NCBI GenBank assembly: GCA_964404065.1
Contig: CAYOIP010000001.1
Coordinates: 21,721-85,720, forward strand
DNA from: an uncultured Candidatus Peribacteria bacterium
GTDB taxonomy: Bacteria > Patescibacteriota > Gracilibacteria > BD1-5 > UBA6164
Length of the DNA stretch: 64,000 nt
Reading direction: 5' to 3'
Shown one piece after another: positions 6,652 through 35,749 of the stretch (positions are counted from its first letter, which is position 1; each line of letters starts with the position of its first letter). Position numbers and translations under genes: made by a program. Below the pieces are notes generated by a model. That model was given only the letters and a program-made list of their open reading frames with translations, was not told the origin of the DNA and did not search any database.

Positions 6652-7047
6652 TTATTTTTTAGAAAATAATATCGAATACAAAATATTCAAAATTGTAAAA
6701 ATTGCAACAGCAATTATAAAATTTATGCTTCAATTGATTTCAAAAGTCATTCCAGGAAGTGCTAAAATGTTATTTATTGCTTTTGATAACAACCATAATA
6801 AAAGTGCATTAATAAGCAAACTTACGATTGGATAAATGAAAAATAATGGAATTCCTAAAAGTTTCAAAACTGGTTTCACAAATGTATTTAAAAGTCACAA
6901 AATAACTCATCAAAGTAGATACGTTTTCCAAGCGTCAATTCAAGCTGGCAAAACTACAACTGCATTGGGATGAGTTTCATTATTTAAAAGATATGCAATT
7001 ATAAAAAGAATAGAAGCATTTAATAAAATGGAAAAAAAGATTTTCAT
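6652..7047 (-). CDS. DUF360 / phage-holin-4-like small membrane protein
   Basis: 131 aa; LLGGVILGLLNTFVKPVLKLLGIPLFFIYPIVSLLINALLLWLLS resembles the DUF360 core. Confidence 0.5.
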
Positions 7048-7069
7048 AGTTTTAAAGTTAGAAAATATT

Positions 7070-8494
7070 TTACAATTTATACTCAATTTTTTCTCAAATT
7101 CAAATATTTCCAGAAATTACATTTGATGATTTTATATAATCAAGTTCATCTATTTCTGGAGCATGGCTTTCTGGTATAACGGAAAGTTTATTTTTTGAGA
7201 TTTCGTGAATATATCAAGTTTGAATTTTTCAAACTCTTTGCTCATATTTTTTATCATAAATTTCTTCTAGGATTTCTCTCATTTCATAAACTCTTTGCTC
7301 AATAATTTTGTCATCAACTTTATTACCAAGTTTTGAAGAAGTTGCTAAAGGTTCATCATGATAACCAAAAAGAGAAACACTATCAAATTCATATTTTCTT
7401 GCAAAATTTTTTAGCATTTCAAAATCTTTTTCATCTTCCCCGGGGAACCCAACTATAAAGTTTGTATGAAGAAAAACATTTTTAAAATTTGCTTTTATGA
7501 AATCTAAAACTTTATAAATATGACTTTCATCGTAAAATCTTCACATAAGTTTTAAAACTTTTGGAGAAATATGTTGAAATGGAAGATCAAAATATGGAAT
7601 CATTTTTTTCAGTTTTGCAAGTCTTTCTAGATGAGAAAAAGTCAAGATATCGGGATACATATAGTAAATTCTATATTTAAAATCTCATGGAACTTTATCA
7701 ATTTCTTCAAGTAAATCTACAAGTTTAGATTCTCAGTAGATATCTGTTCAATATCTTGTTAAATCTTGAGCAATAATTTGAATTTCTTTAATTCCAGAAG
7801 AAATCATCGTTTTCACTTCAGTGAGTATATCTTCGATACTTCTTGATTTTTGTCTTCATCTGATGTTTGGAATTATACAAAAAGTACAATTATTATCACA
7901 TCATTCAGATATTTTTAGATATTCATATCCAAAATCAGCATTTAGGTAAGCTCTTACATCATCAGATTGCCAAATAAATGCTTTTGATGAAATATTGTCA
8001 CCTCAGATATTTTTTAAATAGTTTTTTAATTTTTCTGTTTTTAAGCTTATAATATTTTGATTTAGCTTTCTAAATCCCCCAACCTCCGCTACGCTTTGGT
8101 TTTCCCCCTTTACAAAAGGGGGAAGCGAAGTATGAGCAGGGGGATTTTTCATCCAATCAAGATTTTTACTTTCATTATGAGGAATAACAGCATAAAGATT
8201 TTTAAGGCTTGATAAAAATTCGTCATCTTTTACTTCTGTATAACATCACATAACAATAATTTTCTTTCATTTATCGTCATATTCTTTTATAAGATTTTCA
8301 GCTTCTTTTCTAGAACTAGATAAAAATCAGCAAGTATTTATTATCAAATACTCAACTTCTTTTTCGTCTGGATCAGTAAAAAACTCTATATCAACTTCTG
8401 AAGATAAATTAAAAATATTTCAAACCATAAATTCTAAATCAACTAAATTTTTAGAACATCCAAGGTTTATAGTGGAAAAATAAAATGTTTTCAT
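7070..8494 (-). CDS. rimO: ribosomal protein S12 methylthiotransferase RimO (radical SAM) with a repeat-derived insert
   Basis: MKTFYFSTINLGCSKNLVDLEFM; NTCGF; radical-SAM ISEGCDNNCTFCIIP; C-terminal TRAM-like end. Fragment 7229-7417 is in the same frame. 474 aa. Confidence 0.85.
8072..8147. repeat. GC-rich nested palindrome (divergent variant, copy B) inside the rimO CDS in frame
   Basis: aaatccccc...cgctt..ttttcccccttt-ac-aaaagggggaa-gcg...gggggattt. Outer 9-bp and inner 10-bp inverted repeats. Translated as NPPAHTSLPPFVKGENQSVAEVGGF. Confidence 0.8.
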
Positions 8495-8504
8495 GAAGCA
8501 AAAA

Positions 8505-8531
8505 ATAATAAGCTAAATTTTAGCTTATTAT
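8505..8531. repeat. AT-rich junction palindrome ATAATAAGCTAAA(T)TTTAGCTTATTAT, copy 1
   Basis: Lies between the ubiA-like stop (8528-8530) and the rimO ATG (8494). On the minus strand it is followed by a T-run and then the ATG. Confidence 0.7.
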
Positions 8532-9325
8532 ATGGAAAAAGTAGTTTTGGCAAATTTAATATAAAATATAAAAACAAGTATCATATACAAAAAATAATAA
8601 AATTGATATTTTCAAAAAGGAATATTATTTTTATATTTTGATTTAATAATAAATATTATAAAAAATAATGGGAAAAATAATATCAATATTCATTTAAAAT
8701 AAAAAATTGATGCTATAAAAGAAATTAAGAAAATACTTCAAAAAAATAAATTTGGTAAATATTTTATGCTAAATAAATTTTTATATAAAATTAAATTTAA
8801 ACATGCAAAAGAACTTCATAAAGTAAATAAGATAAAATTGTTTTCTAAAAAAGGATTTATTCATAAATAAATCGTTATTAATAACCATTTTATAAAATAA
8901 ATAATAAAAATATTTATTTCTCTGAGAAAATATTTATTTCTCAATTTAATTTTAGGATGACTATAAATAAAATTTAAAAAATAAAGCAAGAAAATAAAAA
9001 TCAAACTGATTTTTGAAATAAAAAAAGAAATAATAACTCAAATAAGAGGAATAATAACTCAAAGTATAAAAAATAAATTTTTATTTTTTATATCTAAATA
9101 TAAATTATGTTTTTTATTTTTTAAATCCTCATTTTTATCATAAAAATCATTAAGAAAATATATAAAACTATAACTTAAAGAATATCAAAAAATTCATAAT
9201 AAAAAGTGAAATAAATCTATTTCAATATTATAATTAATTTTAAAAATTAAATATAATAAAAAAAATAAATAAAAATTTCTTAAATTATGACTGATATATT
9301 TTATTTCTTTATAATCTTTAAACAT
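8528..9325 (-). CDS. UbiA-family prenyltransferase (integral membrane)
   Basis: 265 aa, highly hydrophobic; Asp-rich motif LNDFYDKNEDLKN (NDxxDxxxD). Confidence 0.6.
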
Positions 9326-35085: not shown

Positions 35086-35694
35086 ATGCCAGAAAGTTTA
35101 AAAAAATTGATTAATCTTATAGGTTTTTTACCTTGAGTTGGAGAAAAGTCAGCTACTAAACTTGCATTTTTTTTACTGAATTCAAATAAAAATTATCTAG
35201 AAAATCTTGCAAATTTACTAAATAATTTAAAATCAAGTATAGGAAAGTGTGAAAATTGTGGAAGTTTGGTTGATATGTGAAAAGAACTTTGTGAAATCTG
35301 CACTGATGAAAGTAGAGATAAAAATATAATTTGTGTAGTTGAAGAATATCTTGATAAAATGACAATTGAAAATTCTTGAATTTTTAATTGAACTTATCAT
35401 ATACTTGGATGAGCTATTTCACCGATAAATGGAGTTTTTATTTGAGATTTAAATTTTGAAAAATTATTTAAAAAAATTGCAGAACACGAGTGAGGTTTAG
35501 AGCTAATTATGGCTACAAACCCAAATATTGAATGAGAAGCAACGGTTCAATATATTTTATGAGAATTAGAAAAAAGATGACTTAAAAAATTTGTAAAAAT
35601 TACAAGACTTTCTAGATGACTTTCTAGTTGATATATAGAATATGCTGATAATATTACACTTATAAATTCTATAAAAGAAAGAAAAGAAATTTAA
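35086..35694 (+). CDS. recR: recombination protein RecR
   Basis: LPGVGEKSATKLAFFLL (HhH), zinc finger CENCGSLVDMGKELCEIC, Toprim ICVVEEYLDKMTIE. 202 aa. Confidence 0.9.
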
Positions 35695-35728
35695 CCCCCA
35701 CCTAACCTCCCCCTTATCAAGGGGAGGG
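35695..35728. repeat. GC-rich palindromic element, single-unit copy F, starting 1 nt after the recR stop
   Basis: cccccacctaacctcccccttatcaaggggaggg; hairpin CCTCCCC-ttatcaa-GGGGAGG. Confidence 0.85.
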
Positions 35729-35749
35729 ATTATAATTAATAAATAATTT

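Follow-up and report, generated by a model that had tools for sequence, protein, structure and literature searches.

The window analysed here, a 64,000-nucleotide (nt) stretch of contig CAYOIP010000001.1 (positions 21,721 to 85,720 of the forward strand) from an uncultured Candidatus Peribacteria bacterium (assembly GCA_964404065.1), carries within its rimO gene a GC-rich nested palindrome of 76 nt (positions 8072-8147) that belongs to a third GC-rich structured repeat family in this genome, designated family C. The palindrome is inserted in frame in the linker between the N-terminal methylthiotransferase (MTTase) domain and the radical S-adenosylmethionine (SAM) core of the RimO protein. We consider it probable that this element is an orphan, that is, a collapsed and non-autonomous family C relic of a nuclease-associated element that is translated as a disordered loop.

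The source genome (G000) is a metagenome-assembled genome (MAG) of 1.28 Mb in 134 contigs, estimated to be 97% complete and with a GC content of 24.5%; G001-G009 are genomes of the same genus. The GC content across the window is 20-28%, and there are almost no long open reading frames (ORFs) under translation table 11, dense coding appearing once TGA is read as a sense codon. The rimO frame is likewise open only with TGA as sense: it contains 15 in-frame TGA codons, all read as glycine, and because these fall at glycine positions (such as in the radical-SAM motif ISEGCDNNCTFC) code 25 can be taken to apply. The best NCBIfam match of the 474 amino acid (aa) product is to RimO (TIGR01125) at 335.7 bits, slightly below the 357-bit equivalog cut-off, and the product is above the MiaB/RimO subfamily cut-off. 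In Pfam, UPF0004 spans residues 9-99 and Radical_SAM residues 194-364, and all six cluster cysteines (C13, C55, C84, C199, C203 and C206) are invariant in an alignment of 19 orthologs. The features of the element and its surroundings are as follows.

7070..8494, minus strand: rimO (ribosomal protein S12 methylthiotransferase), the host gene of the element, 474 aa under code 25.
8030..8071, minus strand: flank downstream of the element in the coding sense, R142-E155, RKLNQNIISLKTE; a possible co-conversion tract.
8072..8147, coding sense on the minus strand: family C GC-rich nested palindrome, collapsed form, read as N117-F141.
8072..8080: left outer arm, AAATCCCCC, 9 nt, 100% complementary to the right arm.
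8081..8101: side module in which AACC (8081-8084) and GGTT (8098-8101) form a weak hairpin; contains CCTCCGCTACGCTTTGG (8083-8099), otherwise present in the genome only in the MutL copy.
8102..8111 and 8115..8124: inner arms, TTCCCCCTTT and AAAGGGGGAA, 10 nt each and 100% complementary, with 3 nt (ACA) between them.
8102..8124: central hairpin P2, TTCCCCCTTT-ACA-AAAGGGGGAA, a variant of the family core CCCCCTTRWTAAGGGGG.
8118..8138: the other side module; contains GGGGGAAGCGAAG (8118-8130), otherwise present only in the copy within the MtaB-like paralog.
8139..8147: right outer arm, GGGGGATTT, 9 nt, pairing with the left arm.
8148..8155, minus strand: flank upstream of the element in the coding sense, W114-M115-K116; congeners have L-I-F-K, and the sister contig described below shares the unusual form.

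In full, the segment reads AAATCCCCC-AACC-TCCGCTACGCTTT-GGTT-TTCCCCCTTT-ACA-AAAGGGGGAA-GCGAAGTATGAGCA-GGGGGATTT. An earlier note on this DNA had described a nested palindrome with an outer 9-bp and an inner 10-bp inverted repeat, both of which prove to be perfect, although the inner arms are separated by ACA rather than by the two nucleotides (AC) given there. The segment is 56% GC, compared with 24.5% for the genome, and is predicted to fold as RNA with an energy of -37.4 kcal/mol (z = -3.4). The window has a single match to ATCCCCC-N40-70-GGGGGAT, where 100 dinucleotide shuffles give an expectation of 0.00. The peptide read from the element (N117-F141, NPPAHTSLPPFVKGENQSVAEVGGF) is that given in the earlier note and it does lie, as claimed, between the N-terminal domain and the radical-SAM core.

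Around 80 GC-rich palindromic islands are found in the genome, and these include family A (CCCCCCTCTAAC-TCCCCCCTAGCAGGGGGAG and so on), family B, which is nearly identical to the Escherichia coli TM_ECO/BoxC consensus CCCTCTCCC..GGGAGAGGG-TTA-GGGTGAGGG, and the third set, family C, with the common core CCCCCTTRWTAAGGGGG. Family C elements are built from AAATCCCCC, a side hairpin, the CCCCCTTnnTAAGGGGG central hairpin, a second side hairpin and GGGGGATTT. We used ten canonical copies, excluding those in rimO and the MtaB-like gene, to build a profile hidden Markov model (HMM) of the family and searched the genome with nhmmer, identifying nine copies at E <1e-8 and about four weaker ones. The rimO element was matched at E=2.8e-4 (20.6 bits) over model positions 2-63, in the coding-sense orientation. 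The variant is thus not unique in the genome, having at least 13 relatives, and the suggestion that it differs from the main family is borne out, since the family to which it belongs is separate from the two main poly-C/poly-G families. The two readings offered at that time, a second subfamily or an old decayed copy, each capture part of the picture: the element belongs to a separate family and is also old and diverged.

The rimO copy has the same outer arms (AAATCCCCC/GGGGGATTT) that close canonical and long-form family C copies, and both the outer stem and the C5TT-loop-AAG5 hairpin are present, with a central loop and stem (TTT-ACA-AAA) that is a variant of TT-RWT-AA. At the positions of the side hairpins, one side has only the 4-bp AACC/GGTT stem with a 13-nt loop, whilst on the other a 6-nt insertion not present in the MtaB copy (CATACT in the coding sense, adding His-Thr) interrupts a GCGAAGC mini-hairpin.

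Comparison with the same-genus genomes identifies the segment as an insertion. The RimO proteins of G001-G003 and G005-G009 are all 454 aa in length and lack it, so that the source genome has gained 60 nt (20 aa) against these eight orthologs. The linker is therefore abnormally long for the clade, as the earlier note had anticipated, but by 20 rather than about 25 residues because the native codons adjoining the insert differ too: WMK and RKLNQNIISLKTE flank the insert, compared with LIFK and LQTLKSKLxGVKQD in all eight congeners. The region appears to be poorly ordered, with an AlphaFold2 model assigning residues 119-153 a pLDDT below 50 and the domains on either side being confidently predicted. 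In Thermotoga maritima RimO (PDB 4JC0) the stretch between two matched blocks is 51 aa compared with 97 aa here. An intein can be discounted, as Pfam shows only UPF0004 and Radical_SAM in the protein, with no Hint or splicing domain, and the insert is 25 aa in length. A further RimO relative (P0020) carries a separate insertion of the AT type, of about 26 aa and located further along the linker (..WVYENVIEQEINFSDKKILKFQKLPQ), that does not resemble a GC-rich element.

A RimO of 473 aa (P0003, found in a large protein database and encoded on a Logan contig from SRR24079443) has an insert at the same place, together with the same unusual flanks (DWIKN... and KKLNQNI...). At the DNA level, this sister contig has a canonical-type family C copy whose stems show GC-to-AT decay. 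The 3′ half of the source-genome copy is homologous to that of the sister (~71% identity) but the 5′ module is at random level. The insert is hence either older than the separation of the two lineages or was transferred from one to the other, with the 5′ half replaced later in one of them.

The rimO copy is in fact a mosaic. The 17-mer CCAAAGCGTAGCGGAGG (coding sense) of its 3′ module is found, allowing up to three mismatches, in only the rimO and MutL copies in the genome, and the 13-mer CTTCGCTTCCCCC (coding sense) of its 5′ module, allowing up to one mismatch, in only the rimO and MtaB copies.

Host genes of the other in-ORF family C copies in the source genome were confirmed with Pfam. These are as follows.

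MutL: in the linker between DNA_mis_repair and MutL_C.
Exonuclease-DinG helicase: between the exonuclease and helicase domains.
PP-loop/TilS-like protein.
HI0933-like flavoprotein.
ArgRS.
Pilin-like protein.
Unnamed 330-aa ORF.
MtaB-like RimO paralog (G000:C64:1930-1990, L033): in the same interdomain linker as in RimO, with a net gain of 5-6 aa against congeners.

All of the in-ORF copies in this genome are in a single orientation and frame (NPPVLSDIPLIKGD...), which is one of two stop-free frames. As only two of the six frames of the canonical element are open and many copies in other genera are intergenic (with two antisense), this bias is mostly a stop-codon filter. We also considered whether strict use of one frame proves that the element has a coding function, an argument that the same two observations weaken.

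Both of the other MTTase paralogs carry repeats: besides the family C copy in the MtaB-like gene, a third paralog (G000:C98:1901-1965) has a family B unit just past the CxxxCxxC region. At positions 35689-35744 of the window, in or near an open frame of 124 codons, is a hybrid element (CCCTCCCCTTGATAAGGGGGAGGTTAGGTGGGGG) that combines a central hairpin of the family C type with the third segment typical of family A (GGTTAGGTGGGGG). The TilS-like (G000:C35:3800-4921, L155) and DinG-like (G000:C23:179-2908, L154) genes each contain two different repeat-derived segments, examples being NPPPALGAKLEGGF plus KVPLNKGDVVRQEDF, and NPPVINDIPLDKGDIS adjoining NPSPPKERLGEGS.

The RimO interdomain linker is a repeated landing site for structured elements. 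In other Gracilibacteria this linker holds a single family B unit (G018) or a double family B unit (the P0045 organism), and in P0051 a short hairpin that may be a remnant, whilst the MtaB linker of G003 holds yet another element. The element at the MutL site turns over much faster than its surroundings: in G002 (L044) it is different or decayed and AT-enriched compared with the copy in the source genome (L043), with the flanks matching at about 97% (33 of 34 and 30 of 31 positions).

Several genomes contain a long form of family C, comprising AAATCCCCC, the stem P1 (TGTCC-loop-GGACA), P2 (TCCCCCTTnnTAAGGGGGA), a spacer of 12-30 nt, P2′, P1′ (for example, TGGCTGAAAGCCG) and GGGGGATTT. The long form is made up of two units in inverted orientation, and the in-gene copies of the source genome represent a collapsed form in which a single P2 is shared. 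A perfect P1 stem of at least 4 bp is found in 56 of 75 copies, and position 5 of the stem is C-G in 22 copies and T-A, G-C or A-T in six copies each, this co-variation arguing that structure matters and not sequence alone. In copies with an asymmetric purine arm (MtaB, C68 and G016), the third segment mirrors that arm, GAGGGGGA being followed by AGGGGGAG; this would be a requirement of a triplex-type unit. In the rimO copy, inspection of TTCCCCCTTT, AAAGGGGGAA and (C)AGGGGGATT finds nine of ten positions to be triad-compatible, with the mirror-symmetric G5 core equally explained by Watson–Crick pairing with the far C5. Because the C5 and G5 runs are symmetric, triplex and cruciform look the same in this copy. 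Searches of seven motif loci against Rfam, at gathering and permissive thresholds, found no family at the motif.

The family C core is absent from G001-G009 but is present in G013, G016, G019, G024 and G026, which represent five other genera of the family and order. The G016 copies are ~92% identical to the MutL copy of the source genome and lie in another host protein, compared with 55% identity between the RimO proteins of the two genomes. Two of them are found at the same position (AKNPPVLSDIPLIKGDSQSGAKAGG) in uncharacterised paralogous proteins of ~520 aa (G016:C5, L025, and G016:C8, L030), each a near-canonical copy, indicating that the element was copied along with the gene. A scan for GACATCCCCCTTRWTAAGGGGGA across one genome per species identified 43 stretches, mostly in Gracilibacteria or other Patescibacteria. 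Beyond Patescibacteria, matches were found in three Latescibacterota MAGs (GC 0.44-0.64) and one each in Trueperaceae (Deinococcota), Marinamargulisbacteria and Leptolyngbya; among viral contigs, scanned separately, there was a single match. In the cyanobacterium Leptolyngbya sp. JSC-1 (L112) a short tandem array (TTAGGGGGATCAATTAAGGGGGATTTAGGGGGATC) comes directly after the central hairpin of family C. In the Latescibacterota MAG 30dZY2.bin.79 (L084, L089, L095, L096, L106, L116, L118 and L120) the left unit of family C forms part of a miniature inverted-repeat transposable element (MITE) of ~290 nt whose terminal inverted repeats (CATTGTCGTAAACTTAAGG) are 19 nt long. Eight copies of this MITE were read, and most of them are themselves inserted in BoxC-like motifs (GAGAGGGGGCCAGGGGG, MITE, GGGGCCAGGGGGTGAG), suggesting that one repeat is targeted by another element.

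The candidate for an enzyme associated with these repeats is the DUF559 nuclease (PF04480), found in 24 of 41 relatives. The source genome has two DUF559 genes, both of the B clade and each located between family B units, in frame inside helicase genes whose identities were assigned from motifs.

G000:C14:3480-3990 (L139, L141): DUF559 in a RecG-like gene, between conserved helicase motifs.
G000:C51:3550-4090 (L140): DUF559 in a RecQ-like gene, between conserved helicase motifs.

The RecG cassette (166 aa) is present in the source genome and G007, and also in G012 and G021, whereas the site is empty in eight congeners. Six cassettes place DUF559 between family C-type units: in G019:C18, where the gene is free-standing, in G026 (twice) and in G032, G033 and G038. 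In all but the first of these, a single frame is open throughout, for 616-767 codons. The hosts in G026 and G033, named by eye, are a TsaD-like gene, a second gene without a confident name and RarA, the NCBI annotation of the G033 host being RarA. In G019:C22 and G016:C8, a free-standing DUF559 gene is preceded by a double element of family A. In a maximum-likelihood tree of 15 DUF559 domains, three groups (support B 98/95, A 97/95 and C 87/88) match the family of the flanking repeats, with two label changes, the minimum, a value reached by none of 200 shuffles.

Embedded nucleases of this kind extend to bacteria that use the standard code. With the G033 nuclease as query, a region search recovered DUF559 in frame (P0127-P0162) within LeuRS-type synthetases (Capnocytophaga), RecG (Winogradskyella), methylmalonyl-CoA mutase, DegT aminotransferases, a DNA methylase and others. 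At the two such loci that were read (L151 and L152), hairpin or mirror-repeat units flank the nuclease. One region search found no MTTase with a DUF559 cassette in the rimO-type linker among 84 candidates.

Taken together, these results allow a history of the rimO element to be proposed. The element would have arrived by nuclease-driven homing or insertion, or by mobilisation in trans, and loss of the spacer or nuclease by recombination between the two identical palindromic hairpins would have left two units sharing one central hairpin. The odd flanks of ~15 and ~45 nt that are common to the sister contig may be a co-conversion tract, and later exchange between genomic copies may have swapped the 5′ half of the rimO copy. 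The insert would persist because the linker is variable and surface-exposed, because its net length is a multiple of three and because only TAA and TAG act as stops, such that a GC-rich element rarely closes the frame. Most likely, it is translated into a disordered loop, rich in Pro and Gly, that has no function for RimO.

More broadly, it is possible, rather than probable, that the GC-rich palindromes found within Gracilibacteria genes, including that in rimO, are the ends and worn relics of an undescribed mobile element. Such an element would consist of a DUF559 cassette (a Vsr-like PD-(D/E)xK nuclease) with hairpin- or triplex-forming inverted-repeat ends. It would insert in frame at conserved sites in housekeeping genes without splicing, spread between alleles with co-conversion of flanks and collapse to translated scars of 50-90 nt, and would do so in several phyla. 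The hosts cited for this reading are RecG, RecQ, RarA and TsaD, as well as LeuRS-type synthetases, RecG and methylmalonyl-CoA mutase in Bacteroidota and others. Movement of these elements by the nuclease is our inference. In the literature searched, we found no description of in-frame palindromic elements in Gracilibacteria or of a link between DUF559 and repeats.

A number of observations weigh against the account of the rimO element given above. No biochemical activity on structures of this type is known for DUF559 from the literature. The link between nuclease and repeat is one of association and co-phylogeny across 15 sequences, for which flank families were labelled by eye. No C-clade DUF559 was found in the source assembly (97% complete, in 134 contigs), an absence that fits with orphan status and decay. 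Neither rimO nor the RecG cassette shows a target-site duplication, although the junctions sit in A-rich runs that hide short duplications. Outside the linker, the RimO sequences of the source genome, the sister and G002 are roughly equidistant, the first being no closer to the sister than to G002, and for this reason vertical descent cannot be separated from transfer of an allele with co-converted flanks. Finally, the use of a single frame in the source genome could reflect selection on the peptide instead of neutrality.

The main rival to a nuclease-associated origin is spread without any dedicated enzyme, in which hairpin, cruciform or triplex DNA stalls replication and the repeats move by template switching and non-allelic gene conversion, with the DUF559 genes being passengers or independent targeters. 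We regard this as unlikely, but a good deal can be said for it: neither a transposase, a target-site duplication nor a C-type nuclease was found in the source genome, modules have been swapped between copies, the MutL-site element is wholly different in the source genome and G002 between flanks that are ~97% matched, and motifs of this kind have been tied to local genomic instability (Holder et al., PMC4666352). What it does not readily accommodate is the co-variation of nuclease clade with repeat family, the behaviour of the cassettes as units with presence/absence polymorphism, and the near-identical copies seen in different genera and phyla, which are difficult to account for unless a defined element was transferred.

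Movement as a classical MITE or as a REP/REPIN-type element, by a transposase encoded elsewhere (a RAYT/Y1 or insertion sequence enzyme), is improbable. The terminal inverted repeats, the nested palindromes and the REPIN-like doublet of the long form are all features that such elements would share, and one Latescibacterota MAG has the motif inside the ~290-nt MITE described above. A Y1/RAYT transposase (PF01797) was considered as the mover and rejected, as no match is found in the source genome and its presence does not track family C across the 41 relatives. Nor was a duplication seen at rimO or RecG, and the copies read by eye showed no GTAG/CGTC tag, no scan for the tag having been made. 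The related autonomous unit, moreover, carries DUF559 and not a transposase.

Very doubtful is the idea that the element is a selected cis-acting signal in rimO, whether a terminator (sense or antisense), a site of transcriptional pausing or RNase action, or a pause in translation that helps the domains to fold. The predicted mRNA hairpin is stable, TTTTT follows the element on the plus strand, and intergenic copies elsewhere often have an A-run before and a T-run after, in the manner of a bidirectional terminator. Eight congeners do without the element, however, the sister copy is decaying, the same element is found in unrelated genes, Rfam offers no match and a scan of positions 7000-9000 of the window for consensus terminators does not call it. 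As for chance, a native lineage-specific expansion of the linker or an assembly artefact, linkers of this type do vary in length among RimO proteins but these readings have next to nothing left in their favour, being contradicted by the shuffles (zero expected), the HMM match (E=2.8e-4), the exact 17-mer and 13-mer in common with other copies and the independent metagenome contig with an element at the same site.

How does the rimO element, read as a relic of a nuclease-associated family, compare with known systems? The Rickettsia palindromic elements (Ogata et al. 2000, as summarised in PMC10969869) are short palindromes found in frame in unrelated housekeeping genes, where they add peptide segments at sites tolerated by the fold, with no known transposase. 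The likeness to the rimO insert as an in-frame palindrome is a comparison of behaviour alone. The Rickettsia elements differ in host phylum and in size (~100-150 bp, compared with the 50-76 nt GC-rich elements here), and the present family is set apart by its units of a hairpin plus third segment, wide spread across phyla and DUF559-bearing relatives. The BoxC/PIT/TM_ECO triplex motifs comprise a pyrimidine arm, a purine arm and a mirror-repeat purine third segment (Hoyne and Maher 2000; Holder et al. 2015, PMC4666352). They share with the present repeats the oligo-C/oligo-G units, the occurrence as inverted pairs and the distribution across many phyla; family B nearly matches the TM_ECO consensus, and the asymmetric relatives in family C obey the mirror rule. 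Family C differs in that its second loop is a hairpin module of 13-23 nt rather than 1-6 nt, and in its consensus. The rimO copy, with a second loop of 14 nt, falls outside the ITxF loop range (1-6 nt) and also does not match the CCCTCTCCC..GGGAGAGGG-TTA-GGGTGAGGG consensus. Whilst TM_ECO in E. coli is described as always intergenic (Holder et al. 2015, PMC4666352), the rimO element is intragenic and in frame.

The REP/REPIN-RAYT system resembles the present one in having structured repeats, inverted doublets, a single-copy enzyme gene bracketed by repeats and an enzyme clade that co-varies with the type of repeat. The enzyme here, however, is a PD-(D/E)xK nuclease of the DUF559 type and not a Y1 transposase, and the elements are intragenic and predicted to be translated. 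Homing endonuclease elements and inteins likewise provide a precedent for nuclease-bearing inserts at conserved sites in essential genes, with presence/absence polymorphism (as at RecG) and possible co-conversion of flanks, but here the insert appears to be retained in the protein, and small derivatives that lack the nuclease are dispersed at many non-homologous sites. The GC clusters of yeast mitochondrial DNA are GC-rich palindromic mobile elements in a very AT-rich genome, and some of them are in frame (in var1). They differ in being organellar, in having unrelated sequences and in lacking such an associated nuclease.

As far as the RimO protein is concerned, the insert most likely represents neutral baggage. 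Its wider significance lies in what it reveals of the genes of Gracilibacteria, which carry at least three distinct families of structured repeats that are predicted to be translated. One of these, family C, has a defined modular anatomy of an outer stem, two side hairpins and a central hairpin, and occurs in long and collapsed forms. The long-unexplained BoxC/PIT/'triplex motif' repeats gain in DUF559, with clades that track the type of repeat, a testable candidate for the enzyme that moves them. Cassettes and scars in frame in essential proteins (RimO, MutL, MtaB, ArgRS, RecG and RecQ) would represent a route to variation in protein length, and inserts of this kind should be recognised by annotation pipelines and orthology methods.

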